Source: an uncultured delta proteobacterium (GTDB lineage: Bacteria > Desulfobacterota > Binatia > Binatales > Binataceae). From it: DNA of 64,000 nt. The notes beneath the pieces were generated by a model. It was not told where the DNA came from. It saw nothing but the letters and a program-made list of their open reading frames with translations, and searched no databases. Location: contig CAVRVY010000004.1 in NCBI GenBank assembly GCA_963724765.1, forward strand, positions 256,001 to 320,000. Direction: 5' to 3'. The position numbers and the translations under genes are program-made. This document shows, piece after piece, positions 10,380-53,548 of the stretch. Each line of letters starts with the position of its first letter. Within the stretch, counting starts at the first letter, position 1.

Positions 10380-10423
10380 TGCTACGCCGGCGTTGCTACT
10401 TGATCAGAACTCGCACTGCTCTC

Positions 10424-10858
10424 CTACTGGGAAACGAGCATCCGCGCGGTCGCGGTCAGGGGCAGGGTCCTGGACGGCAGAAAAGGTATTCGCAGACTGT
10501 AATTCAGGGAGACGGTGCATTGCGCATCGTCGGAGGAGGGCAGATTGGGATCGGCCGGCCAGGTTACCGCGACATCACCGGGTAATAGCTGGTTTGGCGC
10601 CGACAGATCAGCATAAGCAACCGTGATGCCCTTGATCTGCGAGGTGGTCGCGGGGCTCGGGCCAGTCGGCGAATGTACGATCGCATAGCGCACGCATTCG
10701 CGGGCGGCATGGCTGATGGTGTTGTACGAATACACCACCATCGCCAATTCGATGGTCGCGAACGTCAGCAGGAGAAAGATCGTGCTGCCTAAGGCGAACT
10801 CCATCGCCGTCGTGCCTGAAGAATGCTTCGCCAGCGCAGAGCTGAACGGTCGCTTCAC
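10424..10858 (-). CDS. TadE/TadF-like pseudopilin (cassette copy 1)
   Basis: Prepilin motif G/TTAME-F followed by a hydrophobic helix and AARE..RYA. Confidence 0.8.
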   Translation of the reverse strand: MKRPFSSALAKHSSGTTAMEFALGSTIFLLLTFATIELAMVVYSYNTISHAARECVRYAIVHSPTGPSPATTSQIKGITVAYADLSAPNQLLPGDVAVTWPADPNLPSSDDAQCTVSLNYSLRIPFLPSRTLPLTATARMLVSQ

Positions 10859-11340
10859 TGTTGTTGAACCTGCATCACGGCCTGGCTTTTCAGCGTGACC
10901 GAGGAAGGAACCCCGGGGTATTTTACCAGGGTGTTGAAGGGAGCCTGTGTATTGACCACAACATAGTTCCCCTGCGGGTCATTGGTGCAGTAATTCGACG
11001 AACAGGCGAGAATGAATGCGGTCGGGGTTCCACACGTGCACTGGCTGGTAGTGACCGTCAGATTGGCAACATTAATACCATCCTGCTTGGCCGCCGCGAC
11101 CATCCCGGTTGAGTCGGCGGCGGTGATGACGCTATTCGATCCGTACTGCGCCGCCGCCCGCGCGGCATTGATTACCTCGAGATAGGCGTAGAAGAGCCGT
11201 CCGAAGTCGGCTGCCACCACCAGAATGAGCGCGAGCACAGGCAGCGCGAAAGCCAGTTCGACATAGCTCTGGCCACGCGCGGCCCAAAAGCGCCGCCGTC
11301 CCGGCACAGGCGTCTTGGCGTTCGAGCGATGGCTATTCAT
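10855..11340 (-). CDS. TadE-like pseudopilin (cassette copy 1)
   Basis: RG/QSYVE-LA..LP..DFGR, NAARAAAQY; Cys-rich loop. Confidence 0.8.
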   Translation of the reverse strand: MNSHRSNAKTPVPGRRRFWAARGQSYVELAFALPVLALILVVAADFGRLFYAYLEVINAARAAAQYGSNSVITAADSTGMVAAAKQDGINVANLTVTTSQCTCGTPTAFILACSSNYCTNDPQGNYVVVNTQAPFNTLVKYPGVPSSVTLKSQAVMQVQQQ

Positions 11341-12862
11341 AGAGTGCGCTCGATTTTATCGGCGCGCCGTCGGCCAGCGAGGAATAGTTGTTGCCCATGC
11401 TTAGATTGGCATTGCCCGTCACCGATACGGTGTAAGCAATCACGATCGTGTAGCCCGAGCCGCTGGAATTGCCCACATACGTGAGTGTGGTTGTCGGGAA
11501 GTACATGATGCCGTCAAAGCTGGACGACGAGTTGCCGACTATGGTGGCACCGGGGGATCCAACCGCGACCGAGGGGTCCTGGAAGAACAGAAATCCCTCT
11601 AACGTACCCGAGGTGGGAGCACTCAGATTGGCCGTTTCATTGCCCTTCAAGTAGATGGCGCCGTATGGGTAGCCAGTAGCGTTGGTGTCGTAAAATGTCA
11701 CTCCGGTGCCGTTCAAGGTGGAGTTGCCGGTAACCGACAATCCGCCGCCCGCCAGAATATAGGTGCCGGGACTGAAGGTCACGTCGGCGTTGCCGCTGAT
11801 GTTGATTCCGCCAAAATACGTGCCCGGCTGCAGAGTCACCGTGCTGTTCCCTTTGATGTCAACCGCGCCGCAGAATGTGTAAGTCCCGGGATTGAAGATC
11901 GTACCAGTAGTATTTCCACTCAGCGTGATGCTGTCGCCACTGCCCCCGTTCTGGTACTGCCCGGGATTGAAAATCAGGCCGCCGCTGTTCCCAGAGAAAC
12001 TGACCGTGTTCCCCCACGTGCCGCCGTTTAAGGTCAGTGAGCCCAGCAGATTTCCCGTAATCTGCACGCCGCCCCCATAAAGAAAAGGGCCTATGCTCTG
12101 AGCGGGAATATTGCCGCTTATGGTATCAGATCCGCTCGCGGCACCGCCCCTCTGAGTGCAGGTGCCGGCGCTGGGTGCGATGCTCTTGGCGCGGCTAGCA
12201 AGCGGGTCATCCAGCGCAGCAACATTGGTCACAGGCTTCGGAGAAATGGTGGCGTTTCCTGTTTGAGTAAAACTGCTTCCGGATACTCCGACTGATGTCG
12301 CCTTCAGCGTCGAGTTGCCGCTGACCGAAAGCCCGGATAAGGAAGTCGAGTCATCGACTACGCCGCACTGTGAAGTCACGTTCGCGTTGCCACTCAACGA
12401 AAAAGTGTTCGCGTCGCTCGGATCGAGCGCATATATGCATGCAGGTCCCGCAATGGCGCCGCTCACCGCCCGCGCGGCCACCTTCATGGAATTGTAGCCC
12501 AGCACGCGCAGGAAAAATGTCGGTACGTTCTGCGAGATGTCGACCTCGACGTAGGTCACATCGCTCGGATACGGCGACGGCAGCGTTGGTTCGCTCACCG
12601 TCACCGCTACATTGTTCTGTGAGTTGGTGAAGCCGTTGAATGAACTAACGTCATCGGCGGCCTTGGTGTAATCCTCTCCGTCGCGAAGCGCGGTAGCTCC
12701 CGCCACGGCCGCCGCGTCGGCCGCTGTCTGCATGCGCCGCCGCGTGGAATAGAGGTAACCCATGTCCACCGCCAGCGCGGTGAAGCCGAGCAAAACGACC
12801 ATGGAAATGGTCGCCAGCACGAGAATCTGGCCAGAGAACTGTCGACGGTAAGGAAGCTTCAT
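11333..12862 (-). CDS. TadG-like pilus-associated adhesin with G/N/S/T-rich beta-helix-like body (cassette copy 1)
   Basis: GQ..hydrophobic..LAVD.G...QTAADAAA.AGA Tad_N motif; repeated PG.Y/i.Gn motifs; start set where homology to copy 2 begins. Confidence 0.8.
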   Translation of the reverse strand: MKLPYRRQFSGQILVLATISMVVLLGFTALAVDMGYLYSTRRRMQTAADAAAVAGATALRDGEDYTKAADDVSSFNGFTNSQNNVAVTVSEPTLPSPYPSDVTYVEVDISQNVPTFFLRVLGYNSMKVAARAVSGAIAGPACIYALDPSDANTFSLSGNANVTSQCGVVDDSTSLSGLSVSGNSTLKATSVGVSGSSFTQTGNATISPKPVTNVAALDDPLASRAKSIAPSAGTCTQRGGAASGSDTISGNIPAQSIGPFLYGGGVQITGNLLGSLTLNGGTWGNTVSFSGNSGGLIFNPGQYQNGGSGDSITLSGNTTGTIFNPGTYTFCGAVDIKGNSTVTLQPGTYFGGINISGNADVTFSPGTYILAGGGLSVTGNSTLNGTGVTFYDTNATGYPYGAIYLKGNETANLSAPTSGTLEGFLFFQDPSVAVGSPGATIVGNSSSSFDGIMYFPTTTLTYVGNSSGSGYTIVIAYTVSVTGNANLSMGNNYSSLADGAPIKSSALYE

Positions 12863-13216
12863 GTCAAACGGCCTCACTTGCTGTCTTATTCGTCTGAGAT
12901 GAGCTATGCGTCGCGTCATATTAGGCGAACGATTGACGACTTCGCCTTTGCAGGCCACGTCATCTCCAATTCGTCGAAGGACGTTAAGCCTCGGCCCAGA
13001 ACCCGAAACCCCCGCCAGCTTATACCGACTCACCTATGTTATGCTTTGGCATTCTGTACGCTTTAACTATGGGAGACAAGACCGGTTCTGTGCGCCGATA
13101 GCGCTTTTGCTCCAGATGAAGTTTAATTTCTTGATTTCTTACGCTTCTTCCAGAATAGACGAGGTAGGTCAAAGCCACGCCCGATCATCGTGGCGGAAGA
13201 AGGTGGCTTCGCCGCG

Positions 13217-13951
13217 CTACACTGTAGCGGCGATCGCTTGTGAGAGGGTGAATCGTTCTTCGTAAAGCGCGCGACCCGTAATTACGCCAGCTATTCCGCA
13301 CGGGAACAGCCGACTCAACGCGATGACATCGTCGATTCGCGCGACCCCGCCGGAAGCAATTACCGGCGTCTCCGAGGATCGCGCAACCGCCGCGTACATT
13401 TGGATGTCGACCCCGCCCTCGGTACCATCGCGAGATACGTCAGTTAATATAACCGCGGCTACTCCAGCCTGCTGAAAGCGCTTCAAAGCGTCGGCCGCGA
13501 CAAGCTGACTTGTCTCGCGCCAACCCTTGATCGCCAAGCGCCCCTCACGCACATCAAGCGAGCCAAATACGCGTCCGGGATACTCGCGGCAGGCCTCGGC
13601 AAGCATCGGCGGGTTGAGCATCGCGGCCGATCCGATCGACACGTAGTCCGCACCCGCCGCGATCGCCGCGCGCACCGAATCGGCGGTTCTCAGCCCTCCA
13701 CTTACGTCCACCGCGCAGGCGACCGCGGCGCGAATTGCGCGGATCGATTCCAGGTTGCGCGGCGCGCCGGCGATCGCACCGTCGAGATCCACGACGTGGA
13801 TTATCCGCGCGCCCTCATTCTCGAAGGCGCGCGCGGTCGCCGCGGGATCGTTGCCGTAAACGGTTGCACGGTCCATCTCGCCGCGCAAAAGGCGCACAAC
13901 TTCACCTCCCTTGAGGTCGATCGAGGGAATGACGGTGAACTGCTCGAACAA
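13217..13951 (-). CDS. hisA: ProFAR isomerase HisA
   Basis: IPSIDL..G.VVRL..G, HVVDLDGA, SGGLR, TD..RDGT..G, IASGG, GRALY. Confidence 0.95.
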   Translation of the reverse strand: MFEQFTVIPSIDLKGGEVVRLLRGEMDRATVYGNDPAATARAFENEGARIIHVVDLDGAIAGAPRNLESIRAIRAAVACAVDVSGGLRTADSVRAAIAAGADYVSIGSAAMLNPPMLAEACREYPGRVFGSLDVREGRLAIKGWRETSQLVAADALKRFQQAGVAAVILTDVSRDGTEGGVDIQMYAAVARSSETPVIASGGVARIDDVIALSRLFPCGIAGVITGRALYEERFTLSQAIAATV

Positions 13952-13963
13952 GCGCGTGTTTTA

Positions 13964-14647
13964 CTACGACGAAAGCGTGCCCTTGGTTGATAGCACGCCG
14001 CCGCCCGAGCGCGGCTCGCGGGCGGTCGCCTGGTCCATCGCGCGCGCGAGCGCTTTGAAAGTGGCCTCGATGACGTGATGGGGATTGCGGCCGCCGACCA
14101 GGTTGAGATGCAGGTTCATCCCGGCCTCATCACTGAACGCTTTCATGAAGTCGTGCACCAGCTCAGTCTGGAAGGTTCCCACCCGCTCCTGTGCGATCGG
14201 GACGTTGTAGACGAGGTAGCTCCTGCCGCTGATGTCGACCACCGCCGAGCACAACGCCTCGTCCAGCGGAACCATCGCCTCGCCGAAGCGCCGGATGCCC
14301 GAGCGGTCGCCGAGCGCCTGGCGAAAGGCGCGCCCGAGCACAATACCGACGTCCTCGACCGTGTGATGCTCGTCGATATGAAGATCGCCGCTCGCCTGGA
14401 CCACGAGATCGAAGAAGCCGTGGCGCGCGAAGCTCTCCAGCATGTGGTCGAGGAACGGCACGCCGGTCTCGACCGCGCCGCGCCCGCCGCCGTCGAGATT
14501 GAGGGCGACCTTGACCTCGGTCTCGCGCGTCTTGCGTTCGACCGCGGCCGAGCGGGCGGAAAGCGGCTCGCCACCGGCGCTCGCGCGCGGCTTGTCCGCG
14601 GGCGCGACTTTCAAGCGCGAAGCCTTAAACTGAGACTTGTTGGCCAT
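13964..14647 (-). CDS. hisB: Imidazoleglycerol-phosphate dehydratase HisB (monofunctional)
   Basis: RKTRET, FLDHML, DEHHTVED, NPHHVIEA.FKA, STKG. Confidence 0.97.
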   Translation of the reverse strand: MANKSQFKASRLKVAPADKPRASAGGEPLSARSAAVERKTRETEVKVALNLDGGGRGAVETGVPFLDHMLESFARHGFFDLVVQASGDLHIDEHHTVEDVGIVLGRAFRQALGDRSGIRRFGEAMVPLDEALCSAVVDISGRSYLVYNVPIAQERVGTFQTELVHDFMKAFSDEAGMNLHLNLVGGRNPHHVIEATFKALARAMDQATAREPRSGGGVLSTKGTLSS

Positions 14648-14735
14648 CTTTTTCAGAAGATACCTGCCTAGAGCATATTACCCGTCAGACGGGATTTGGG
14701 TAACTCGCGCGGCAGAATTTTTTCCCTCTCGACCA

Positions 14736-14802
14736 AGGCCGTTCATCAACGGCCTCTAAACCGGAACGATCTGATTTGTAGGGCCCGTTCGTGAACGGCC
14801 TC

Positions 14803-14803
<1 letters not shown>
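14736..14803. repeat. Pair of REP-like palindromes in opposite orientation (GTAG-type)
   Basis: aggccgttcatcaacggcct (14736-14755) and gtagggcccgttcgtgaacggcctct (14778-14803) between hisD and hisB. Confidence 0.7.
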
Positions 14804-16149
<1,346 letters not shown>

Positions 16150-16160
16150 CGCATCGCATC

Positions 16161-17429
<1,269 letters not shown>

Positions 17430-17581
17430 TCGAAGATGTAGTTTTCCCCCCGGGGCCGTCGAATCGAAGCCTGCGTGCGCGGCCAGCATCTCAGCGCCGT
17501 CCACTTTCGCTGGTAAGTATCGTTTACCAACGATGGTAAGTAAAAGGTGTGCGACCGAAATGCGCGACAAAGGCCCCGGGT

Positions 17582-17625
17582 TGTCATCCCGAGCGAGTCC
17601 GCGAGTCGCGGGACCCGGATCCTCT
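17582..17625 (+). repeat. GTCATCC-type short palindromic repeat element
   Basis: tgtcatcccgagcgag... resembles 63611 (ctgtcatcctgagcg) and the reverse complement of 37026-37061. Confidence 0.5.
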
Positions 17626-17729
17626 CCGCGAAGGCGAGTAGCTTCTTCGTGGCGCCTGGCGTTCCCGTTCTCGGTTGGAACGTCCGCCACAGAGCTACTT
17701 TAACCGCGAGCGATTATCAGGCAGCCAAT

Positions 17730-19016
17730 CTATAACGCGGTGAACTTGCCGCCGATGAGCTTGAACGTCACCTTTTCGCCGTTAACTTCCGAGAGAACAC
17801 TGTTCCGGATTTCGGGCGTATCCTCGGTCAGGTAGACGTGGAGCGCCGCGCTATCGGGGGTGTCTCCTGCACCAATCCCAACTGCAGCGACCCCGCGCTG
17901 CGCGAGCAGTTTTTGCCCGTGAGTCTGCTTGACGCTGCGCACGTGCTCGATGGACGCGCGGAGCGTGTCGCTGATCTCGGCCGACCGAACTGAGCCCTCG
18001 ACTTGCAACTCCAGCGGGGGCGCCGTGCACGTCTGCCCGACAAGTGACACCTTGAGCGTGGTAAGAATGGTTTGGATCGGATTAACCGCCACGATCGTGC
18101 CGCCCGAATCAGGTCCGGCGCCAGAGGCGCCCGCGAACACCATGCCAATCGCCTGCGGGCAGGTGAAGTCCGCGGTGACCACTATCGCGCCTGAATCACC
18201 ACTACTGGCAAAACCGCAGCTTCCGGGTTGACCTGGCACTTCGCCGAAAATCAGAATCTGATGGTCAAACAGGGCCGTACCCGACGCTGCGATATTACAG
18301 GTATTGGTGTAAACCACCTGACCCATCGCATCGAATGCGTCGACCACGCCAGAAGTCAGACAGCTCGACCGCCCCATCTTCATGACCGGCAGACCGACAA
18401 CCAGATTGTCGAACGGAAACGGGGTGGTGCTAATCTGCCCGATGTTAAGGATCGCACCTGAGAGGTCGACGCCTGGCACCGAAGGGCCGACCGGACCTTG
18501 GTTTGCCATCACAACCTTGGCGATCGCTGCATCTAACAAATTTTCGCCACCCGCGAAGTTGATCGGCGTCCATTTTGAAAGCTGCGCCACAGTGTCGCCC
18601 CTATCCTGCCAGCAGGCAAGATCGAGCAGACCCGGCTGGACGATCGGTTCCAATAGATTGGCACTTGCGGATCCACTGCTGGTGCGCGCTAACACGTGGT
18701 TGGTGCTCAAGACAAACGGAACACCGGTGCTGTTTTGCACGAGGGCGCCAAAAGTACCCGCACAGCAGGTGACCCCGGTCTTCTTGGATTTCGTCACACT
18801 GTGGAAGTTACCGCCCGAGACGCCAAACAACGAAGGCGGTTCTTCCGCGCCCGTCTCACATTCGGCGGCCGCGCCGCTGGGCAGCGTGGTAATCGAGCAG
18901 CTTAGTGCCGGGGTAGCCGAGGGGGTCGGCGTTGTCTGCGCGTTAGCCGTTACTGTACCGAGCATCACGGCCAGCACCACCAGCAAAGCCGCCCCGCATA
19001 ATGAACGCTCCTTCAC
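17730..19016 (-). CDS. Secreted trypsin-like (Nal1-like) serine protease
   Basis: LSTNHVL (His), DAAIAK (Asp), KMGRSS.LT.G, GDSGA (Ser); signal peptide; GAGGAGG before GTG 19016. Confidence 0.75.
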   Translation of the reverse strand: MKERSLCGAALLVVLAVMLGTVTANAQTTPTPSATPALSCSITTLPSGAAAECETGAEEPPSLFGVSGGNFHSVTKSKKTGVTCCAGTFGALVQNSTGVPFVLSTNHVLARTSSGSASANLLEPIVQPGLLDLACWQDRGDTVAQLSKWTPINFAGGENLLDAAIAKVVMANQGPVGPSVPGVDLSGAILNIGQISTTPFPFDNLVVGLPVMKMGRSSCLTSGVVDAFDAMGQVVYTNTCNIAASGTALFDHQILIFGEVPGQPGSCGFASSGDSGAIVVTADFTCPQAIGMVFAGASGAGPDSGGTIVAVNPIQTILTTLKVSLVGQTCTAPPLELQVEGSVRSAEISDTLRASIEHVRSVKQTHGQKLLAQRGVAAVGIGAGDTPDSAALHVYLTEDTPEIRNSVLSEVNGEKVTFKLIGGKFTAL

Positions 19017-19465
19017 GAGACCCTCCTCCCCCAGTCGGGCTCCGCAGAGCCGAAGCGCGAACATCCATCAGTTGGCCCATTGCGCCGCGCGCAGTTGCCG
19101 AAGGATTATCAGAATGCCAATGAGAAGGAAATAGGTCTCGGTGACCAGAGATTTAATCATTTTGATTGACCAGATATGGATCAGCGCCGATCGCCGATAG
19201 GAAGCTGGACAAAACTTAGCGATTCGTGCCTTGAAGCCGATTTGCCCTAAGTTTTAGTATAAGGGACGTTAGCCACGAAGCAGATATCTCTGGGCATGAG
19301 AAAGAGCGGCGCGATCGGTCTTGCTGTTAAGTAAGCCGGATAGACCCGACAATGTTATCGTTTGCGTGTTGTATTTAAAGCGATCGTATAAGTTGCGCGG
19401 CCGAGATGCCGATAGAGCTGGTTATCCGACCCACCTCTTCAGTCATCCTGACCGAAGACCGGTTA

Positions 19466-20419: not shown

Positions 20420-20424
20420 CGGCG

Positions 20425-21492: not shown

Positions 21493-21634
21493 CTAAGTCG
21501 TGACGGAGCGTGGATTCAGCACCGCACGGGACAAAAATTTAGCGCGGCTACCAAGTGTTGGGCCAGCCGCGCCATCAAGACCGATCCCCCGCCCACCCGG
21601 ACGCATCATGGCGCGCCGCGGGCAGCGGAGGTTG

Positions 21635-21841
21635 CTATGCTACTTTACGACCGTACTTGCGATTGAAGCGCTCGATCCGGCCGGCCGTGTCGACCAGCCG
21701 CTGCGTGCCGGTGTAGAAGGGATGGCAATTCGAGCAGACCTCGACGTGCAATTCGTTCACCGTCGAACGCGTCTCGAACGTGTTGCCGCATGCGCAGGTG
21801 ACTACGCAGCGATGGTATTCGGGATGGATTCCGGGTTTCAT
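21635..21841 (-). CDS. rpmE: 50S ribosomal protein L31 (Zn-binding type)
   Basis: [23 protein letters not shown]. Confidence 0.98.
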
Positions 21842-41424: not shown

Positions 41425-41441
41425 CCTCATGGCGTTATCGC

Positions 41442-43656: not shown

Positions 43657-44199
43657 ATGAGCGTGGTTTGTATCGGCGGACTTTTCGGCGCGGGGCTCCT
43701 CACCTGGACCTTCCTGGAGTACGCGATTCACGGCTGGATGGGCCATCGGTTCGCGACTTTCGTGACCCCGCTCCACCACGTCCATCATCGCGATCCCCGC
43801 GCGGCTTTCGCGCTCGGCGCATGGCTGCCGGCCCTGCTCCCCTTACTTATCGGCGCCGCCCACGGAACGCACGGATGGACGATCTTCTACGGCGGCATCC
43901 TGGCCGGGTTCGCGATCTACGAGTTATTGCACTACCGGATCCACTTCAGCGCGCCGCTCTGCCGCGCGGAGGCCCGGATGCGCACGCGTCACTTAATCCA
44001 TCACTATTGCGCGCCGGCGCTGTGTTTCGGAGTCACCACGGCAATGTGGGACCGGGTCTTCGGAACCAGTGCGAGCGGCGCCAACGCTGCTCTGCTGGCG
44101 GCCCGCGTCGCCACGATAGCACCCCTTGAGGGCCCGTCGAACGTCGCCGCGCCGGGTGCCGTGATGCGCCGGCTGATAGCCACAATCGCGATTCGCTAA
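43657..44199 (+). CDS. Fatty acid hydroxylase/sterol desaturase family membrane protein
   Basis: EY.IH...H, HHVHH, YE..H...H, HLIHH, FGVT...WD.VFGT His-boxes. Confidence 0.85.
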   Translation: MSVVCIGGLFGAGLLTWTFLEYAIHGWMGHRFATFVTPLHHVHHRDPRAAFALGAWLPALLPLLIGAAHGTHGWTIFYGGILAGFAIYELLHYRIHFSAPLCRAEARMRTRHLIHHYCAPALCFGVTTAMWDRVFGTSASGANAALLAARVATIAPLEGPSNVAAPGAVMRRLIATIAIR

Positions 44200-44678
44200 T
44201 CCGTCCGAGCCGCGGGCGCGCCCCGGCGGCCCGGACGGCGCGTGAGCGGTGGTTCGAGCGGCAATATATTGTCACTTCCCTGGTCTGTTTGGAGCCAGTT
44301 TCTCGTCACTAGCTAATCCCGCGCCGTCTGCGCCGCGCAAATCCGCTCTTATTTCTACCTAATTTCCGGGCACGCTATGTGCTCCGGCGCAATGGGTCGC
44401 GCTAGAAGCGCGGGCGCGCGACACGTTGCGCGGACGATCCGCTCGAAGTCTTAACGCAAGGACGAGGGCACGCTGCTCAAGGCTCAGGTGGCCACGCGAT
44501 TCGTCCATAGCGCGGCGGCGTGAATTCGCCGGGGGGGGGTTGGTGGGGGAGTTCCGCCTAATCGCTTAAGCGCTTAGGCGCACGATTTCAATAGTCAGTC
44601 GGCGCCGGTGTACTACCGCGAGCGATTACTCGTCGCGCGGATCGCGCCGAACACGACGACAACGAGCAGGGAGTATCT

Positions 44679-46789
44679 ATGCGACGAGTCTTAGGCTTGG
44701 TCCCGGGTCCGATTCTGGTCGACGAAAGCGGACGTCACACGCGAGATATGCGGGCGCGCGCAACCCAGGCTCACGCGCTCCGGGCATACGCGCTCCGGGC
44801 ATACGCAAAGACGTGCCTGGCGAGCGCGGCGATGCTGATGACGGTTGGGCTCGGATGGGCGGTGGCCGCGCGCGCCCAGGCCAACATAACGCTCAGCAAC
44901 ACCGGCCTGACCGGCGCGATCGCCACCAATACGAACTGGTCGATTGCCAAAAGCGGGGGCGTCGCCAGCGGCACGGCGAGCTGGACGGTTGGGGTGACGA
45001 AGGTCTCCGTGAGCGATCAGATAATCGAGGTCGACGGCCAGGTCCGGATAAACAATACCGGCACGGGACCGGCCCCGCTCGGCAACATTATCGTCAATCT
45101 GCAGCGCCCCTGCGGTGCGGTATGGGTTTCGGCGGCGGCAGGCGTAGCCGACGCGACCTTCGGCCAGGCGGCAACTTACGGCAACTTTATCTCCACTGCG
45201 ACTTACGAGAACGCCACGCGCAACAGCCCGAGCTCGGCCTGCCGCGGACCGGGTAACTATGTGGTCACTACCACCGTCGACGGGCACGCAGTCAAGGAAG
45301 GCACGTTTTTCAGTACCGGCGCCTCGGGCAAGGTCGACTTCGTTAACGCGGCCGACAACTCGGTCTTCTCGATGGTGCCCGAAGTCCAACTGGCTGCCGG
45401 GGCATCGATCAGGCTCTTCTACACTGCGACCTTCGACAACACCATCCTGGGAATCGCGCCGGGAACCGAGCTGCGACCCGAGGTCATCGTCAGCGTGGCC
45501 GCCGCTCAGCAAACCGCCTTGAACGTGTCACGGCTCGTCGACGTCGACGACCAGGACGGGCCGGCCGGCGGAGACGACGCCGGATGGTCACAAAGCGCCG
45601 CGATACGGCAGTCGTTTAAGCCCAAACCAGCGCAGTGCAACCAGACCATCACGTTGAGCGACGCACGAAACAATAGCAATCCGGCGCTGACCGGAACCGC
45701 CACGATGACCAGCTTCACCAGCTTCAACGATACCGGGACGCTGACGATCGACGGCTCGTCGATGAGCGACGGGCAGACCAACACGCAGGACGTAAGCGCC
45801 GCGGTCAACGGCGGCGTCAGCGGCGGCACCATCACCAACTGCGCCGGCATCACCGGCCCCAACACGACCATCAAGCTTGTCGTGGGCAACTTCAGCAAGG
45901 TCTTCAGCGTATGCACCGGAGTAAACGATACCGCTTGCGATGAAGAGGACGTGCCCAGCAATGCGGGCCCGGCCACGCCTACTCCGGCACCGTCCCCGGT
46001 CGTGACGCCCACACCGGTTGTCACGCCCACTCCAGTCGTAACGCCCACTCCGGTTGTCACGCCCAGTCCAATCGTCACGCCCACTCCGGTCGTGACACCG
46101 ACGCCGACCGCCACGCCTACTGCTGTGGTACCGCCGTACAGCAAGAATGAGTTCTGCACCTACAGCGAGGCGCATTGGTCGCATACCTGCGGCGAATGCG
46201 ACGGCGGACGCTACGGCGGCGAAGAGCATAGCGCTGCGCAGAGCCTCAAGCACGGAGAGGATGATGACTGCGTCGGGGAGGGCAGTCAGGCCCATAACCT
46301 CTTGACCGAGAACTTCGACACCGTGTACGGCGCCAGCGGTGGCGTGCATGTAGGCCTCAGCTGCGCCAGCGATCAGTTCGGGATGACCTTCACCTCGGCG
46401 GCCGCGATCCAGAACTACTTGCCCGCGGGCGGACCGGCCGAAGTGCTCAACGCGTGTCTCGTCAACCCGTCAAGCTCGCACTCGGGCAATCTCGGCGGCG
46501 AAGTCCTGGCGCTGGAACTCAACGTCGACTTCAGCGCGGCCGGTATCACAGAGGGTACGGGTGGTCCGTTCGGTAACCTGAATCTGTGCGGCAGCGGCAC
46601 CTCGTTCGACGGCATGTCGATCGCGGAGATTCTCGCGGCCGCCAACAAGGCGCTGGGCAACGGCGGGATGCCCGCAGAGCTCGATCCAGACTCTCTGGCG
46701 ACCTGCTCCATCAGCTCAACAACTCGTTTGACGAATGCTATCCGCACGGTTTCGCCCAGAAGTACCTGACCGGCGGAGCTTGTCCGTAA
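44679..46789 (+). CDS. Secreted Cys-containing surface protein with VVTPTP linker; apparent 1-nt frameshift near 46707
   Basis: Signal peptide, PT repeats at 45975-46120; annotated frame stops at 46769, but the shifted frame reads GDLLHQLNNSFDEC...ACP* to 46789. Confidence 0.65.
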
Positions 46790-46828
46790 AGCTGAGCCTG
46801 TCTGTAAAGCGATTTGTCCGCGACGAAC

Positions 46829-46862
46829 GAAAGGGCCGGCCCCTGTGGGCCGGCCCTTTTTC
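46829..46862. terminator. Bidirectional intrinsic terminator
   Basis: gaaagggccggccc-ctgt-gggccggccctttttc between convergent genes. Confidence 0.85.
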
Positions 46863-46904
46863 ATTGCCTCGTTGTGAACCGAATCCGCCGTCAGCGATCG
46901 GCGC

Positions 46905-48941
46905 TCAGCTGACCGCCGCGGCGGCTGACGATGACTGGCACAGCAGCGTCCGCGCGCAATAGGCAGCGGTTATCCGCCACACGGTTAGCGAAAATTGCTT
47001 GCGCAGCCGCTTGCCCGAAGCATCGATCACTCGAATCGTCGGATGCCAGGTGCCCTCCCTGGTTGCGACTCCCATGATAGCGCCGGCGGCCTGGTCGATC
47101 GAAAGGCCTGGCGGCAGGTAACCCAGGATCACGGCGATCGTATAGGGCGCGCGGCCACCGCTGATATCCAGCGAAGTATCGTAGATAACCGTGGTATGTG
47201 CGCTGGGTAAAATCGCACTGGCGCCAATCTTCAGCGGCGATGGCGCCGGGGTCGGCGTCGATGTAGGGGCCGCAGTGGGCGTCGCGGTCGGCTTGGGTGT
47301 AGGCGTCGCCGCAGGAGTGAGTGTAGCGGTCGGCATCGGTGTCGCGGCCGACGCGCCAGGGGTTATCGAGCCCCACCACGTACCCCACATATTGCTTTGA
47401 CCGGCGTACTCCTGGATGGTCCACATCGAGGTGTCGTCGACCGGATCGACCACGGTCGCGGTGAAGTCGCCCCATCGGTTCTCGCCGGTGCCGAAGTCCT
47501 TGAAGTAGGACGCCTCACCCGCCTTCAGGATCACTTCGCTTCCCATCGTGTTCGGAGGGTCGCTCGCCAGGTGTATCGAGTAGGCCGCGCTCGCATATAT
47601 CCCGGTCCCGAAATGTGTATAGCCGAGCATCATGTCGCCGTACTGGTTAACGGCCAGCGACGGGTAGGCGTAAAAGTTGGCGGCGCTGGGATCGTCGATG
47701 CGTCCGAACTGCTGCACCTGGCCAAACGCCGAGGCGCTCATATTGATCTGCCACCATTGCGCGGCAGTGCGAGTCGGAGTTCCAGTCGCGGGAAGGTAGA
47801 CGGTATGCGAGGCCCAGAGAGAGCCATTGCGATACACGCAGCTCTGGATCCGCCCGTCCTCGGTCTGGATGTTCTCGCTGGAGCCGAGTTGCGGAGCGAA
47901 ATTAGCGACCGGCGAGAACGCCTGCCAGGCCGACGGCCCGGTCGGATAGGCTACGCCGCTCGTCAGCACTTCGGACCCGACCGGGCCCGTTATGGTGTCG
48001 ACCCGGAGCTCGCCGGCACCCGAGCTGCTCTGCTCCAGCAGGTACATGGTCGAAAGATTGGGATCCAACGTAGTGGCCGGGACCTGAGTATAGCCACTGG
48101 TCGGTGTGAGCACGGTATATTTGCCCGTGCCGCCGGCGTACAGGTCTGCCTTGTCAAAAGCCCAAATCATCGAGTTGACGAAATTGTTGCCGGCGACGGT
48201 GAAGATGTTGGCCTGCACGACGATCCAGTTCTTATTGAATCCGAGGGTCGGATAATCGACCCAATTGACTGACGAACCAAGGTTTATCTTGTAGATATTC
48301 CAGCCGGCGGTGGGATCGCTGGTTTGCGAGACACCGATCAGGATGGCCGCGTTCGAGGACATCTCTCCGGCGGCGGATGAGAAGATCCAGCGTTGGGCAT
48401 ACGGATCGTAAAGGATATGCGCGTCGAATGACTCGGTCACGCCCAGAGCCGACCAGAAGGTCCAGTTGGTGATTGCGCTCAGAACGTTGCCCGACCTGTC
48501 CTGGATCACGACCTGGCTGTTGAGCGCTTCCATCAGATGATGGGGCCCGACCGCTCCCTCGGAGTCGGGCGGAATCACCGTGCCGTTGTCAGCCACCGCC
48601 AAGAAGCTGTTGACGGGCGGGAGCGATTGCACGGTCGAAACTGCGGGCGGCGGCGCTTCGCTCTCGGGCGCGGCAACCGCTTCCTCACTCTCTGTGGTGC
48701 TTTCGATTTGCGGTGCGAACGGGCGATGAATTTTACGATGCTCATTGAGCGGCATCGGACCAAGCGCCTCGTCACGAGCGACCCCCTTGAAGTTTATTGA
48801 GGCGCGCTGCGCCGCCTCGCCTGCCGTGCCGTTTACCTGGACCGGAGACGCCCCGGCGAGTGTTTGAACGGCGGCGACGCCTACAAGCGCGATAGCCGCC
48901 GAGAAAATAAATTGCCGAATTCGCCGCGTGGTCGATATCAC
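46905..48941 (-). CDS. Secreted protein (PPD..GAVGP / RWGD family) with PT linker and Ig-like (He_PIG-like) C-terminus; paralog of 54166-56583
   Basis: Signal peptide; PPDSEGAVGP, YDP...RW, DYP, RWGDF; GG..PY......LPPGL. Confidence 0.7.
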   Translation of the reverse strand: MISTTRRIRQFIFSAAIALVGVAAVQTLAGASPVQVNGTAGEAAQRASINFKGVARDEALGPMPLNEHRKIHRPFAPQIESTTESEEAVAAPESEAPPPAVSTVQSLPPVNSFLAVADNGTVIPPDSEGAVGPHHLMEALNSQVVIQDRSGNVLSAITNWTFWSALGVTESFDAHILYDPYAQRWIFSSAAGEMSSNAAILIGVSQTSDPTAGWNIYKINLGSSVNWVDYPTLGFNKNWIVVQANIFTVAGNNFVNSMIWAFDKADLYAGGTGKYTVLTPTSGYTQVPATTLDPNLSTMYLLEQSSSGAGELRVDTITGPVGSEVLTSGVAYPTGPSAWQAFSPVANFAPQLGSSENIQTEDGRIQSCVYRNGSLWASHTVYLPATGTPTRTAAQWWQINMSASAFGQVQQFGRIDDPSAANFYAYPSLAVNQYGDMMLGYTHFGTGIYASAAYSIHLASDPPNTMGSEVILKAGEASYFKDFGTGENRWGDFTATVVDPVDDTSMWTIQEYAGQSNMWGTWWGSITPGASAATPMPTATLTPAATPTPKPTATPTAAPTSTPTPAPSPLKIGASAILPSAHTTVIYDTSLDISGGRAPYTIAVILGYLPPGLSIDQAAGAIMGVATREGTWHPTIRVIDASGKRLRKQFSLTVWRITAAYCARTLLCQSSSAAAAVS

Positions 48942-49762
48942 CTTCGATAGCCTCCCAAGCGCGCCTTCGCTGGAGCGGGCTTGCTCGTTTCAAGGCTATG
49001 AAGCGCAATGATAGGACCACGCGAACCATTTTCATCTTCGACACACCATCACTGCTGGAATTAGAACAAGCCGGAGCACACGGCGAGACATCGAAGCGCA
49101 TAAAAGCGCTCATGCTTCGATTCGAATCAGAATGTCTGAACGAATACGGATTTATCGCACGACGGTCTTCGCCTCACGATGGCTCAGACAAGACCACCGA
49201 TCGCTGCCGCCCGATCCATCCAAACTGTGTCGGGTCCGAGACACGAATCGTTTGTGCGGTACCCAGCTCCACTGAAATCCGAGTGACTACTTGGATGAGA
49301 CTTGTGCTGCCCGGATACGAAACAGGATGCTTAAAGCTTATTCAGCCCGCCCCGGCTCGGGCCCGCCCTCGATGTAGATCGCGGGTAGATTTCGCCGCGC
49401 GAATCGACCGCGGCGGGGCCGTCGAGCCCGAGGCGCTCAGGCGTCGCCCCCCTGACCATTCCGCCGCCGCGCCCGCCGGCCGGCGCCGCCGACCGTCCGA
49501 CCATCCGTCGCTGCGCGGGGCTCTCCCTTGCGGCTCCTGCCCAGGGAGCGCCCAAAATCGCCGATCGCAAATCGCGCTAGGTCCCGTCCGTCAGCTAAGT
49601 TTCCCAGGATTTAAACAAGCCGCTTTCCATCCTCAACGCGCACAGCGACTCCCAGGATTTGATAGCCCCGTGAGCATCCGGACGTAGTTTCGCCCGACTG
49701 CACGCGCTTTCATTGCCTTGAGATACGGTCATAAGCATGTTAAAAGATAAGAATGATAGGTA

Positions 49763-49791
49763 TTGCGTTTTAAGAATACGTGTATCATGAT
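49763..49791 (+). promoter_or_regulatory. Possible sigma70-like promoter
   Basis: TTGCGT-17-CATGAT in an AT-rich patch, -35 lies 64 nt before ATG 49827. Confidence 0.4.
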
Positions 49792-49826
49792 TAAGATGCG
49801 GCTGGACGAATAGGAGTTCTTAATTT

Positions 49827-50039
49827 ATGCGTCAGATTGTGGAGCTGAGAACGAAAGATGGCGGCAAAGTCAGCATTGTCCTTGATCACTGGGGCTCCGG
49901 GTTGGACGATGCGATGCGCCGTTGGGTACTGGTAGATGGTTACTGGAGGTGCACTGACAACGGAGACCTCGCAGAGGAAGCTCGCTTGAGTGGCCTCAAG
50001 GTTTTTAATGCTTCGCCCCCTTTGCTTGGCTTGAGATGA
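49827..50039 (+). CDS. 70-aa hypothetical protein
   Basis: AGGGAG RBS; a degenerate paralog at 50924 supports coding origin. Confidence 0.6.
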   Translation: MRQIVELRTKDGGKVSIVLDHWGSGLDDAMRRWVLVDGYWRCTDNGDLAEEARLSGLKVFNASPPLLGLR

Positions 50040-50085
50040 GAGTTCAAGACGAGCAAATCGCCGGCCGCGGGCTGGGCTAGTGCGG

Positions 50086-50436
50086 TTATCTTTTGCGATG
50101 GCCTCCGGTCAAATTATAGTCCCCGGTCAATCTCAAGCCCGTCGCGGGCATCTCCGTTACGGCCTCGACGTCCAGGTTCGACACTTTGTATTCGTAGCTG
50201 ATGTTCGACACCTCGAGACTCTTCAGTCCGAGCAAGATCAGCAGTTCGTCCCAGAACCGAACCTGCGGGACATACTCCTTGGCCAGAACTACATCGCCGG
50301 TCCAATAGTTGATGGAACCAACTTTCCTGGTTTCGGACCACATCTGACCAGAGCCATTGTCCCGAACACCGAAGTCGCTGTCTGTGCCTGGGAGACCGTA
50401 AATCCGCACTGACCCTGGGATGATGTACTTCCGCAT
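50086..50436 (-). CDS. Hypothetical protein with phage-structural-like motif
   Basis: IPGSVRI...DNGSG...GSINYWTG; coding-like codon usage. Confidence 0.5.
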   Translation of the reverse strand: MRKYIIPGSVRIYGLPGTDSDFGVRDNGSGQMWSETRKVGSINYWTGDVVLAKEYVPQVRFWDELLILLGLKSLEVSNISYEYKVSNLDVEAVTEMPATGLRLTGDYNLTGGHRKR

Positions 50437-50659
50437 GATCGGCCGTCGTCTCTCAGTGAAGATTTAACGTTGAGCCAGGCTGTTGGCGTGCCGATCGCAT
50501 AGCTCCCGCTGCCGAAGCGACCTGCCCTGATTGTCGGTGTACCGCGCGATCATGGGAACCCCGACTCGCGGAATTGCCAGCGGTAGAGCATCCCAAGTAC
50601 TCGCAGGCGAGTAGTTGAATCTCCGGAGCCACGCCAGCGGATCCTAACGAAACGGCTAA

Positions 50660-50700
50660 ATCAAAAGAAAGGGCGGTTCCCAGCACAAGGACCCGCCCTC
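50660..50700 (-). terminator. Intrinsic terminator-like hairpin with no convincing upstream CDS
   Basis: Minus strand gagggcgggtcc...ggaaccgccctttcttttgattt. Confidence 0.55.
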
Positions 50701-50923
50701 CCGCGCGGCGTCGGAATCGTCGGTACCAGGCCCCGCTCGGCGGTGAAAATGGGGCACTGGCTGGCGACGCGGCGGCGAGAGTCGCGGATCTACGAGGTCA
50801 GCCAGACAGGATCTCTGAAGGTATTCAAAAAGTATCAAAGAAGAGATTGAGACGTTATTGCATCATAAAAGTGAATCTGTAATCATTAACATCGTAAAGA
50901 GTGGCCATAGGAACACACGGACC

Positions 50924-51060
50924 ATGACACGACTAGTCAAACTGCGTACGAGCGATGGAAACACAGTCTGTGTCGTTCTTGAGCGTTGGGGCTCCGGCTC
51001 GGATCACACTTCTACGTCGCTGGACATTGGCCGGAAGCCACTAGGAGTGCATGAACGATG
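50924..51060 (+). pseudogene. Degraded paralog of the 49827-50039 ORF
   Basis: MTRLVKLRTSDGNTVCVVLERWGSG aligns to MRQIVELRTKDGGKVSIVLDHWGSG; frameshift near 51010, then LRRWTLAGSH*ECMN with TAG at 51042 where the paralog has Trp. Confidence 0.7.
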
Positions 51061-51108
51061 TTCGCCGGATCTCCTGATTCGCTCTAACAGCAAATGAGGT
51101 CATTGGAG

Positions 51109-52629
51109 ATGAAGCTTCCTTACCGTCGGCAGTTCTCTGGCCAGATTCTCATACTGGCAGCCATATCCATGGTCCTTTTGCTCGGCTTCACCGCGCTGGC
51201 GGTGGATATGGGTTACCTCTACTCCACGCGGCGGCGCATGCAGACAGCGGCCGACGCGGCGGCCGTGGCGGGAGCTACCGCGCTTCGCGACGGAGAGGAT
51301 TACACCAAGGCCGCCGATGACGTTAGTTCATTCAACGGCTTCGTCAACTCACAGAACAATGTAGCGGTGACGGTTAGCGAACCAACGCTGCCGTCGCCGT
51401 ATCCGAGCGATGTGACCTACGTCGAGGTCGACATCTCGCAGAACGTACCGACATTTTTCCTGCGCGTGCTGGGCTACAATTCCATGAAGGTGGCCGCGCG
51501 GGCGGTGAGCGGCGCCGTAGCCGGACCGGCCTGCATATACACACTTGCCCCGAGCGGTTCCGACACCTTCAGCTTAACCGGCAATGCCAACGTCACCGCC
51601 CAGTGCGGCCTAATCGACAATTCGAGTTCCTCATCCGGGCTTTCACTTACCGGCAACATCACACTGAAGGCCACGTCGATCGGGGTGGTCGGGAGCAGCT
51701 TTTCCAAGTCCGGCAATGTCACCATCTCGCCGCAGCCGGTCGAGAATCTCGCAGCGCTATCTGACCCGCTCGCGGGACGCGCCGCGAGCGCAGCGCCCAG
51801 CGCCGGCACCTGCACTCAGCAGACCGGCGCCTCCGGAAGCGAAAGCTGGAGTGGCAATATCGGCACGCTCACGGTCCCTGCCGGAGTATACAAGGACGGC
51901 GTCAGCATCAGCGGCAACGTCACCGCGGTAACCTTCTCCGCCGGCAACTATGGAAACACTGTCGACTTCAACGGCAACGGCGGCAACCTGACTTTCAATC
52001 CTGGCCAGTACCAGAATGGTGGCAGTGGCAACAGCATCACGCTGAGTGGAAATACCGCGACCACCTTCAATGCCGGAACGTACACGTTCTGCGGCGCGGT
52101 CGATATCACCGGCAACAGTAGTGTCACCCTGCAGCCGGGCACGTATTTTGGTGGAATCAGCATAACCGGCAACGCCAACGTGACCTTCAGTCCCGGCACC
52201 TATATCCTGGCGGGCGGCGGACTGACGGTTACCGGCAACTCCGCCTTGAAGGGAACCGGGGTCACCTTCTACAACACGAGCGCGACCGGCTATGCATACG
52301 CGCCGATCGATTTGACCGGCAATGAAACCGCAAATCTGAGTGCTCCCACCTCGGGGACCTTCGAGGGCTTCCTCTTCTTCCAGGATCCGTCGATCCCGGT
52401 CGGCTCATCCGGCATCACCGTAGTTGGCAACTCGTCGTCGACTTTCGATGGCATCGTCTACTCGCCCACCACCGCGATCACATACGTCGGCAACTCCAGC
52501 GGCTCCGGCTATACGATTCTGATCGGATATACCATCTCGGTGACCGGCAACTCTTCGTTTACCATCGGTAACAACTATTCTTCGCTGGCCGACGGCGCAC
52601 CGATAAAGTCGAGCGCACTCTATGAATAG
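51109..52629 (+). CDS. TadG-like adhesin (cassette copy 2)
   Basis: Same Tad_N motif and beta-helix-like body as 11333-12862; alternative start at 51094. Confidence 0.8.
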   Translation: MKLPYRRQFSGQILILAAISMVLLLGFTALAVDMGYLYSTRRRMQTAADAAAVAGATALRDGEDYTKAADDVSSFNGFVNSQNNVAVTVSEPTLPSPYPSDVTYVEVDISQNVPTFFLRVLGYNSMKVAARAVSGAVAGPACIYTLAPSGSDTFSLTGNANVTAQCGLIDNSSSSSGLSLTGNITLKATSIGVVGSSFSKSGNVTISPQPVENLAALSDPLAGRAASAAPSAGTCTQQTGASGSESWSGNIGTLTVPAGVYKDGVSISGNVTAVTFSAGNYGNTVDFNGNGGNLTFNPGQYQNGGSGNSITLSGNTATTFNAGTYTFCGAVDITGNSSVTLQPGTYFGGISITGNANVTFSPGTYILAGGGLTVTGNSALKGTGVTFYNTSATGYAYAPIDLTGNETANLSAPTSGTFEGFLFFQDPSIPVGSSGITVVGNSSSTFDGIVYSPTTAITYVGNSSGSGYTILIGYTISVTGNSSFTIGNNYSSLADGAPIKSSALYE

Positions 52630-53107
52630 CCATCGCTCGAACGCCAAGACGCCTGTGCCGGGACGGCGGCGCTTTTGGGCCGCGCGTGGCCAGAGCTATG
52701 TCGAACTGGCTTTCGCGCTGCCTGTGCTCGCGCTCATTCTGGTGGTGGCAGCCGACTTCGGACGGCTCTTCTACGCCTATCTCGAGGTGATCAATGCCGC
52801 GCGGGCGGCGGCACAGTACGGATCGAATAGCGTCATCACCGCCGCCGACTCAACCGGGATGGTCGCGGCGGCCAAGCAGGACGGTATTAATGTTGCCAAT
52901 CTGACGGTCACCGCCAGCCAGTGCACGTGTGGAACCGCGACCGCATCCGTTCCCGCCTGTTCGTCGAATTACTGCACCAATGACCCGCAGGGGAACTATG
53001 TTGTGGTCAATACACAGGCTCTCTTCAACACCCTGGTAAAATACCCTGGGGTTCCTTCCTCGGTCACGCTGAAAAGCCAGGCCGTGATGCAGGTTCAACA
53101 ACAATGA
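52622..53107 (+). CDS. TadE-like pseudopilin (cassette copy 2)
   Basis: G/QSYVE prepilin motif; 6 aa differences from copy 1. Confidence 0.8.
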   Translation: MNSHRSNAKTPVPGRRRFWAARGQSYVELAFALPVLALILVVAADFGRLFYAYLEVINAARAAAQYGSNSVITAADSTGMVAAAKQDGINVANLTVTASQCTCGTATASVPACSSNYCTNDPQGNYVVVNTQALFNTLVKYPGVPSSVTLKSQAVMQVQQQ

Positions 53108-53538
53108 AGCGACCGTTCATCTCTGCGCTGGCGAAGCATTCTTCAGGCGCGACGGCGGTGGAGTTTGCGTTAGGCAGCACGATCTTTCTCCTGCTGACGT
53201 TCGCGACCATCGAGTTGGCGATGGTGGTGTATTCGTACAACACCATCAGCCATGCCGCCCGCGAATGCGTGCGCTATGCGATCGTACATTCGCCGACCGG
53301 CCCGAATCCCGCGACCACCTCGCAGATCAAGAGCATCACGGTTGCTTATGCTGATCTGCCGGCGCCAAACCAGCTATTACCCGGTGATGTCGCGGTAACC
53401 TGGCCGGCCGATCCCAATCTGCCCTCCTCCGACGATGCGCAATGCACCGTCTCCCTGAATTACAGTCTGCGAATACCTTTTCTGCCGTCCAAGACCCTGC
53501 CCCTGACCGCGACCGCGCGGATGCTCGTTTCCCAGTAG
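53104..53538 (+). CDS. TadE/TadF-like pseudopilin (cassette copy 2)
   Basis: G/ATAVEF prepilin motif; 7 aa differences from copy 1. Confidence 0.8.
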   Translation: MKRPFISALAKHSSGATAVEFALGSTIFLLLTFATIELAMVVYSYNTISHAARECVRYAIVHSPTGPNPATTSQIKSITVAYADLPAPNQLLPGDVAVTWPADPNLPSSDDAQCTVSLNYSLRIPFLPSKTLPLTATARMLVSQ

Positions 53539-53548
53539 GGGAGCAGGT

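Follow-up and report, generated by a model that had tools for sequence, protein, structure and literature searches.

The 64,000-nt stretch of DNA analyzed here (the window) comes from an uncultured bacterium of the family Binataceae and carries two copies of a three-gene set, tadG-tadE-tadE, which probably represent two alternative tip cassettes of a Tad (type IVc) pilus. The copies, referred to as A and B, form an inverted repeat pair at 10416-12884 (-) and 51087-53546 (+) with a spacing of 38.2 kb. A repeat finder recovered three collinear inverted arm pairs covering both cassettes (Table 1), and together with the open reading frame (ORF) lists and Pfam domains this confirmed the twin inverted gene sets recognized in a previous, sequence-only reading of the stretch. 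Within both cassettes one large gene is followed by two small overlapping genes (12862-10424 (-) and 51109-53538 (+)). The homology was found to start approximately 22 nt upstream of tadG (12884/51087) and to include a GAGG ribosome-binding site, instead of commencing exactly at the tadG ATG as originally described; 19 of the 25 positions up to and including this ATG are identical between A and B. On the opposite side it reaches approximately 10 nt beyond the last stop codon and takes in both the ribosome-binding site and the GTG start codon belonging to a fourth gene, whose frame ends in copy A after 7 codons. Beyond these limits the sliding-window identity between A and B is at the random level.

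Both TadG proteins match PF13400 Tad (48.6 and 49.7 bits for TadG-A and TadG-B, cut-off 22.3) as well as PF09977 Tad_C (27.2 and 27.1 bits, cut-off 22.1), and the four small proteins match PF07811 TadE at 40.2-52.0 bits (gathering cut-off 22.9). All 58 of the 58 aligned TadE1 homologues carry G23 and E28, the glutamate being located five residues after the glycine and before a hydrophobic helix; in TadE2, G15 and E20 are kept in at least 90% of 75 sequences, likewise ahead of a hydrophobic helix. We take this G/XXXXE signature of TadE1 and TadE2 to be the prepilin-peptidase motif of pseudopilins processed by TadV/CpaA. Pfam domains and conserved motifs thus uphold the TadG and TadE identities assigned earlier.

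Table 1. Features of the two cassettes and their surroundings. Positions refer to the window unless a related locus is named.
Feature	Position	Strand	Length	Remarks
Inverted arm pair 1	10416-11909/52053-53546		1494 nt	91%
Inverted arm pair 2	11910-12034/51931-52055		125 nt	79%
Inverted arm pair 3	12140-12884/51087-51831		745 nt	85%
tadG-A	11333-12862	-	509 aa	large TadG-like minor pilin; Pfam Tad 1e-12, Tad_C 8e-6
tadE1-A	10855-11340	-	161 aa	TadE-like pseudopilin; Pfam TadE 3.8e-10
tadE2-A	10424-10858	-	144 aa	TadE-like pseudopilin, GTG start; Pfam TadE 1.5e-12
tadG-B	51109-52629	+	506 aa	large TadG-like minor pilin; Pfam Tad 4.6e-13, Tad_C 9e-6
tadE1-B	52622-53107	+		Pfam TadE 3.6e-10
tadE2-B	53104-53538	+		Pfam TadE 7.6e-14
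5' constant block A	12455-12884	-		ribosome-binding site and TadG codons 1-136 (leader, alpha-1 helix, small pilin-like sheet)
5' constant block B	51087-51516	+
Divergent head-coding segment A	11393-12454	-	1062 nt
Divergent head-coding segment B	51517-52569	+	1053 nt
3' constant block A	10416-11392	-		last 21 TadG codons, tadE1, tadE2, remnant ribosome-binding site and GTG of lost fourth gene
3' constant block B	52570-53546	+
Hypervariable head patch	51823-52044	+		TadG-B residues 239-312
Fourth gene, cassette B only	53549-54133	+	194 aa	hydrophobic N-terminus
Fourth-gene match in L003	12430-12900
Fourth-gene match in L005	12441-12770
Fourth-gene match in L027	12386-12691
Fourth-gene match in L040	12637-12993
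Upstream region A	12863-13216	-		downstream of hisA, same strand; AT-rich stretches
Upstream region B	50437-51108	+		AT-rich near 50830-50910; holds small ORF 50858-51097
Interval between repeats	12885-51086		38.2 kb
hisA (His_biosynth)	13217-13951	-
L31 (rpmE)	21635-21841

The two copies were compared by global alignment with a 60-nt sliding window, and synonymous (dS) and nonsynonymous (dN) divergence was calculated according to Nei-Gojobori. Over the full cassette (51087-53546 in B coordinates) 336 aligned columns differ, and these are distributed very unevenly. The sliding identity amounts to ~0.9-1.0 from 51111 to ~51500, 0.45-0.85 over the next ~1.05 kb, and again 0.9-1.0 from ~52570 to ~53540. 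Both the abrupt fall after the motif GGCGCC (51511-51516) and the return of near-identity from ~52570/11392 were reproduced, the former also in the junction sequence; hence, the previously claimed anatomy of constant ends around a variable body holds. The 5' block shows 17 differences in 430 nt (96.0% identity), with the final 141 nt being identical; 12 of the 17 crowd into the first 89 nt and five are spread over the other 341 nt (Fisher p = 8e-6, post hoc split). Its 408-nt portion, initially described as near-identical, is indeed 97.1% identical, but does contain 12 differences. The 3' block shows 29 differences in 977 nt (97.0% identity), which makes 46 differences in 1407 end-block positions altogether, and identical runs within the constant blocks measure 141 and 180 nt. 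Taken by gene, dS and dN are 0.065 and 0.018 for TadG codons 1-136, 0.051 and 0.017 for tadE1 (96.3% amino acid identity), and 0.045 and 0.026 for tadE2 (94.4%). The head-coding segment differs in 290 of 1053 aligned columns (~72% nucleotide identity), with a dS of 0.99 and a dN of 0.195. Aligned as proteins, TadG-A and TadG-B (509 versus 506 aa) share 79% amino acid identity and are separated by three one-codon indels, where a single one had been reported. The dS along the cassette, proposed beforehand as a check, is therefore strongly non-uniform, with 0.04-0.065 at the ends versus about 1.0 in the body. The pairwise dN/dS of ~0.2 shows purifying selection on the TadG head. Applied to the head distances including another species, a three-point split assigned an omega of ~0.25 to the A branch and ~0.13 to the B branch. 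In view of this ratio and the intact ORFs, both heads look functional.

An AlphaFold2 model of TadG-B (118-sequence alignment; mean predicted local distance difference test 85.1; predicted template modeling score 0.76) shows a pilin-like fold with an extra C-terminal domain, composed of a long helix (residues 12-60), a small sheet (85-138), and a strand-rich body extending from residue 140 to residue 504-506. In this model the pilin module finishes with its sheet at ~138, and it is here that constant sequence gives way to variable sequence (residue 136/137). A pilus tip built from functional modules explains this split without a switch. The weak top rows of a fold search against the PDB were beta-solenoids (curli CsgA, ice-binding proteins, tapirin, ComZ), which is consistent with a solenoid-like body at most. 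Of the initial description of this body as a beta-helix-like adhesin, the strand-rich model makes the beta-helix plausible without establishing it, and the role as adhesin is putative. An Atlas lead connecting the head to DUF7305 (score 0.96, family present on 14% of members) was not confirmed by Pfam at E<=5 and was dropped.

For analysis of their ancestry, the copies were set against 79 related loci from species-representative genomes, the nearest of which are the Binataceae-type metagenome-assembled genomes (MAGs) L004, L001, L002, L005, and L003. The end blocks of A and B share 97% DNA identity versus 71-85% between either copy and other species. Over the head, identity between the two copies is only 64-79%, while B and L004 reach 79-87%. 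The dS values follow the same pattern, with 0.98 (A-B), 0.79 (A-L004), and 0.58 (B-L004) for the head, compared with 0.50-0.82 (B-L004) and 0.04-0.06 (A-B) for the end blocks. In the maximum-likelihood tree of the ends, A is sister to B with a support of 100/100, and a grouping of B with L004 and L001 to the exclusion of A was rejected by the approximately unbiased (AU) test (p = 4e-10). In the tree of the heads, A and B are not sisters and a forced A+B clade was rejected (AU p = 0.012). Informative sites in triplets with L004 as third sequence, counted as A=B / B=L004 / A=L004, yielded 83/4/9 and 150/20/7 for the 5' and 3' blocks, respectively, and 51/170/83 for the head. The optimal switch points fall within 51504-51517 and 52569-52575. 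Judged from these comparisons, the heads split at least as early as these species and the ends share a far younger ancestor. As dS is non-uniform and the segment trees conflict, the mosaic arose by recombination and not by uniform decay of a duplicate. The same grounds reject an undisturbed, ordinary old duplication: the copies have recombined with each other or with a third allele.

Affinities also shift within the head. A is nearer to L004 in 51517-51640 (23 versus 9 sites), and B is far nearer to L004 in 51641-52060 (101 versus 25 sites). Residues 241-280 belong to a hypervariable patch, with an amino acid identity of 0.38 between A and B and a mean pairwise identity of 0.53-0.66 among the 30 closest homologues. 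At the DNA level B is 80-93% identical to L004 but 48-73% to L001 in this patch; B, L004, and L002 carry one type, which is absent from L001. A patch of high identity between the two heads (52142-52232) was considered as a conversion tract and rejected, being equally conserved across all species pairs. For mosaic alleles, which the sequence-only reading had named as a check, there is one candidate. P0244, a 218-aa partial protein from another assembly that clusters with copy B at 90% identity, shares every residue of copy A from 1 to 156, including six A-specific states at 137-152. Over residues 157-211 its identity is only 80% with A, compared with 87% for B and 91% for P0003 and P0013 (Fisher p = 0.03 for the contrast of 137-156 and 157-211), and its last seven residues match neither copy. 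P0244 therefore looks like a natural mosaic allele with an A-type start and a non-A head, with the reservation that it is a protein fragment and could stem from a chimeric assembly.

A TadE1 homologue is present in 61 of the 79 related loci, and the triad tadG-tadE-tadE was found in 18 of 21 loci inspected, in unrelated flanks, which marks the module as conserved and stand-alone; neither cassette shows flank synteny with these relatives. Several cassettes per genome are common. In our genome, the 1,752,473-nt contig that carries A and B also encodes at least the proteins P0036, P0041, and P0180. In its N-terminal part, P0036 (501 aa, 66% identity) matches A at 75% and B at 74%, P0180 is a TadE2 paralogue with 74% identity to TadE2-B, and P0041 is a 351-aa TadG paralogue lacking the N-terminal part, which starts ~20 residues past the constant/variable junction and carries a B-like head (78% over the body). 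The latter could be a truncated copy, a frameshift, or the result of a mis-called start. The proposed search for further cassettes was thus successful with regard to paralogues, on the same contig and in relatives; the further copies on the contig do not share the near-identical blocks. Among the 79 loci, the same-genome pairs L001/L034, L006/L012, L007/L014, L019/L047, and L032/L039 contain no near-identical mosaic (64-75% identity or no match).

Since the heads are old and the ends recently shared, recombination is required, either as conversion of the ends of paralogues or as head replacement in a duplicate. We lean, and no more than lean, toward gene conversion between the ends of old paralogues, and the clustering of the differences in the 5' block suggests more than one conversion event. 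A possible though less probable history, leaving the function unchanged, dispenses with conversion of old paralogues: copy A originated as a recent promoter-less duplicate of B (dS ~0.05), and a diverged allele, supplied by another strain or by a third paralogue, later replaced its head through double crossover. The similar dS in the 5' block, tadE1, and tadE2 fits one recent duplication event and thereby speaks against the preferred conversion history. The duplication would also account for the sharp ends of the homology at the ribosome-binding site and past the last stop, for the ribosome-binding site and GTG of the fourth gene retained in A without the gene itself, and for the other paralogues not being homogenized, while the mosaicism among species and P0244 show that head segments move. 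In contrast, the uneven distribution of differences in the 5' block (12 in 89 nt versus 5 in 341 nt) suggests more than one event. In a search of 5.8 billion proteins, the head of copy A had no relative above 76% identity besides itself, leaving this history without a donor-like head, whereas the head of copy B has relatives up to ~90% identical. Furthermore, a foreign donor being ~72-85% identical to the flanking blocks would be a poor substrate for homologous recombination. That one copy or the mosaic itself was created by mis-assembly or polishing of a repeat is highly improbable. The source appears to be metagenome-assembled, its relatives being MAGs, but each copy has unique and different flanks on both sides, the 336 differences respect the codons with intact frames and three in-frame indels, and each head holds its own phylogenetic position. 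In addition, each protein is found on two contigs, though these possibly represent the same assembly in two archives.

Regarding function, the window probably contains a pair of paralogous minor-pilin cassettes, each standing alone and each encoding a tip of a Tad pilus. Each would provide one TadG-like pilin, whose first ~138 residues form the pilin module and whose remaining ~365 residues form a beta-rich, solenoid-like head, together with two TadE-like pseudopilins. The closest parallel known to us is Myxococcus xanthus with its four paralogous kilLMN clusters, each modeled as a heterotrimer at the pilus tip, in which the N-terminal helix bundle is conserved and the KilN head varies (PMC12075869). 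According to the same paper, any one of these tips genetically suffices to prime the pilus, the tips differ in prey range, and the authors propose that specificity is set by the variable C-terminal domain of the large pilin, located at the pilus end (PMC12075869). TadE/F/G of other bacteria were modeled like KilLMN, the authors leave the mode of tip selection undetermined, and by sequence the kil-type tip families are restricted to Myxococcota (PMC12075869). The cassettes resemble KilLMN Tip1-4 in being paralogous three-gene clusters, mostly located away from the machinery genes, with two small pilins and one large TadG/KilN-like pilin, and in combining a conserved N-terminal helix base and prepilin-peptidase motifs with a variable C-terminal domain on the large pilin. 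Our genome contains several paralogous three-gene minor-pilin clusters with the variable domain on the large pilin, as a tip-complex system would. Differences exist as well. The Myxococcus tips are described only as paralogous, while here the bases differ by a dS of ~0.05 and the heads by ~1; the KilN head consists of two long helices plus a beta-scaffold, while the head found here is beta-rich and solenoid-like and belongs to no family; and Myxococcus is predatory, while the host is an uncultured Binataceae bacterium without known predatory habit.

By analogy with the KilLMN and TadEFG tips, TadG, TadE1, and TadE2 would bundle their N-terminal helices, and the bundled tip would prime and cap an Flp filament made by machinery encoded elsewhere, exposing the TadG head at the pilus end. 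The mutually fitting parts of the base, i.e., the TadG pilin module, TadE1, and TadE2, would be kept alike by intragenomic homologous recombination, while the heads would represent old, distinct alleles maintained by selection. The cell could then place either of two heads on one kind of pilus, most likely through ordinary expression of two transcription units with presumably independent promoters. RecA-type crossovers between the inverted blocks may occasionally invert the 38-kb interval, probably rarely and as a by-product rather than as a dedicated switch. That the family does have Tad machinery is shown by the neighbors of locus L021, the one locus out of nine scanned with Tad machinery within 10 kb (CpaC secretin and CpaB). 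Its CpaC-type secretin (Secretin and T2SS-T3SS_pil_N domains) and RcpC/CpaB are located at 845-3844 (-), 6-9 kb upstream of the cassette. Tad machinery was absent from the scanned ORFs of L002-L005 and L007, which comprised only some of the ORFs of L002, L005, and L007.

Several observations weigh against this reading. None of the 286 PDB matches of the TadG-B model in the fold search reached E<=0.001, the head has no Pfam match, and its adhesive role is one that we infer. Flp pilin, prepilin peptidase, CpaF/TadA, TadB/C, and secretin were not found among the window ORFs scanned. Pattern scans for promoters, sigma-70 included, and terminators gave matches at or below chance. The sigma-54 consensus had 21 matches versus 25.2 expected, none of them within ~780 nt upstream of either tadG. 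Cassette A follows 354 nt behind hisA on the same strand, and hisA transcription might read through into it. The orphan head of copy A is unexpected for an old, conserved paralogue unless its lineage is poorly sampled. Finally, P0244 would mean that heads have been re-assorted onto an A-type 5' end in related populations, and recombination may thus exceed the role of a by-product.

The arrangement of the copies gives any recombination between them a defined geometry, which had been worked out correctly before: both 5' ends face the 38-kb interior, so that a crossover in the 5' block exchanges the upstream regions between the bodies and would invert 12885-51086. A crossover in the 3' block would keep each head together with its upstream region, exchanging only the tadE pairs and the downstream context. 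With uninterrupted identity over 141 and 180 nt in the blocks, some low rate of RecA-type events is bound to exist. The sequence-only reading had gone further and proposed a candidate allele-switching system. In a RecA-dependent switch of this kind, frequent and selected events would vary the pilus-tip head in the sense of phase or antigenic variation, with inversion of the 38-kb interval connecting one strong upstream region to the alternative head or with conversion overwriting the head being expressed. We consider such a switch quite unlikely. It would be served by the opposite orientation and the shared 430-nt 5' block with its identical last 141 nt, and it would be in line with the past exchange between the copies at breakpoints coinciding with the module boundary, with the hypervariable patch and the segment-wise mosaicism among species, and with the joining of A residues 1-156 to a non-A head in P0244. 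A version of the switch, in which the shared 5' and 3' blocks are maintained as recombination substrates and conversions with truncated copies yield mosaics like P0244, appears similarly improbable; P0041 could be such a 5'-truncated, body-only copy, but it may as well be a frameshifted or mis-called gene.

Against a switch, both cassettes are complete, each with its own start codon, ribosome-binding site, and AT-rich upstream DNA. Actively exchanging repeats normally stay almost identical, and 46 differences in 1407 block positions (dS ~0.05, 3-4% divergence per block) would be more than frequent exchange predicts. Moreover, P0036 (75%) and P0180 (74%) do not share the constant blocks, no silent partial donor with these blocks was found, and among the 79 loci, with their limit of two per genome, no other genome has a comparable near-identical pair. 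The interval is not a compact promoter element but 38 kb of housekeeping genes, including hisA, hisB, an EPSP_synthase-family gene, prmC, prfA (RF-1), rpmE, and many metabolic genes. In agreement with the earlier statement that the window lacks both a recombinase and Tad machinery, neither was detected in 50 larger, 44 small intergenic, and 2 further ORFs; transposase, integrase, resolvase, and invertase domains were all without a match in this set, in which 13 of the 50 larger ORFs have no Pfam match at all.

Comparison with established recombination systems leads to the same assessment. In the sap locus of Campylobacter fetus, one promoter resides on a compact invertible segment, numerous cassettes are tightly clustered, and experiments have demonstrated the switch; homologous recombination in the conserved 5' regions inverts the intervening DNA and connects the upstream sequence to a different body. 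Our locus resembles it in the opposed homologues, the conserved 5' regions flanking invertible DNA, and the divergent bodies, but differs in that each copy has an upstream region of its own, the interval covers 38 kb of housekeeping genes, and shared ends occur in only one pair. Neisseria pilE/pilS and Borrelia vlsE operate with promoter-less, truncated silent donors and one expression site. Conserved flanks around the variable segment of a surface filament or surface protein, and mosaics formed by non-reciprocal recombination, are features in common with these systems. Unlike their silent cassettes, both copies are complete operons here, full-length and equipped with ribosome-binding site and start codon, and the flanks are not common to all paralogues, being absent from P0036 and P0180. 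Site-specific inversion of the shufflon or fim/hin type does not match either, as no recombinase was found in the ORFs scanned and the repeats are 2.46-kb gene copies instead of short sites. The Salmonella genes tufA/tufB are inverted paralogues kept alike by RecA-dependent conversion with occasional inversion of the interval; in contrast to these, homogenization is limited here to the base modules, ends at a protein-domain boundary, and leaves an old, divergent middle. Palindrome arms are another case of gene conversion between inverted copies (PMC3723533). In restriction-modification specificity genes, target-recognition domains are reported to move by recombination at conserved flanks (PMC3467074). 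The likeness lies in a variable specificity domain bracketed by conserved sequence and re-assorting among paralogues, while the protein class is different and the movement proposed here is a reconstructed history plus the P0244 fragment.

Paralogous Tad tip cassettes and partial concerted evolution are each already known. A literature search yielded no prior account of gene conversion, phase variation, or paralogues of TadG, nor of Tad pili in Binatota, and we found no description of the present combination, in which a Binatota host carries inverted cassettes whose base is homogenized up to a domain boundary and whose heads are old. If the interpretation as tip cassettes is true, the locus provides a natural example of an interchangeable tip for Tad pili outside predatory bacteria and in a little-known phylum. 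It would also display an unusually clean modular signature, with the DNA of the base alike at two loci, the exposed head different, and the breakpoints at the domain boundary. Two heads on an otherwise identical scaffold offer a concrete pair for probing Tad tip specificity, and head segments of the TadG family re-assort among lineages. No new category of mechanism is implied unless active switching is demonstrated; should the switch be real, an uncultured environmental bacterium would gain heritable, reversible variation in what its pili bind.

Minor-pilin genes are multiplied in several related loci. A second cassette, consisting of a TadG with von Willebrand A domain and two TadE genes, lies within a few kb of the first, at 13781-15630 (-) in L003 and at 13288-15667 (+) in L007, and a second, different minor-pilin cassette at 2008-3081 (-) in L005. 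L003 carries a small HTH_17 gene just upstream of tadG, and transposase-like genes are found nearby in L005 and L007. Tandem tadG-like genes with 67-76% mutual identity, three in L022 (688-4517) and two in L024 (2231-4928), are another route to multiplied heads.

The fourth gene of cassette B has no Pfam or NCBIfam match, and a BLASTP comparison with TadG found nothing. Matches by tblastn were obtained in 5 of the 79 loci, and in L003, L005, L027, and L040 they directly follow tadE2. The gene possibly encodes a small Tad/TadG-like minor pilin, as suggested by an Atlas lead to small PF13400 proteins (score 0.90, a lead only).

The upstream regions of A and B are unrelated in sequence, and cassette B is preceded by ~2 kb of poorly coding DNA of lower GC content. 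Scans of the window with Rfam and for tRNA genes gave nothing, and a past inversion could not be read from the GC skew, which is too weak. The G+C content is 0.58-0.60 in both cassette regions (10001-14000 and 48001-54000) compared with 0.62-0.69 over most of the window, a difference that the Ser/Thr/Asn/Gly-rich proteins or a foreign origin might explain. The region preceding tadG-B contains two small ORFs, at 49827-50039 (+) and 50858-51097 (+), which have no family match and share a 62-nt (~29-aa) motif; the former also matches, by tblastn, a stretch of L040 (9453-9638) directly in front of its tadG. Cassette B is furthermore flanked by two large paralogues in direct orientation, 46905-48941 (-) and 54166-56583 (-), with 678 and 805 aa and 50% identity over 502 aa. 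Both begin with a signal-like N-terminus, contain linkers rich in Pro/Thr, and carry a He_PIG Ig-like domain at the C-terminus, while their ~500-aa core has no family. A neighboring ORF of 696 aa at 44679-46769 (+), without Pfam or NCBIfam match, contains seven 18-nt tandem units (45978-46139) encoding a Pro-Val-Val-Thr-Pro-Thr-like repeat.

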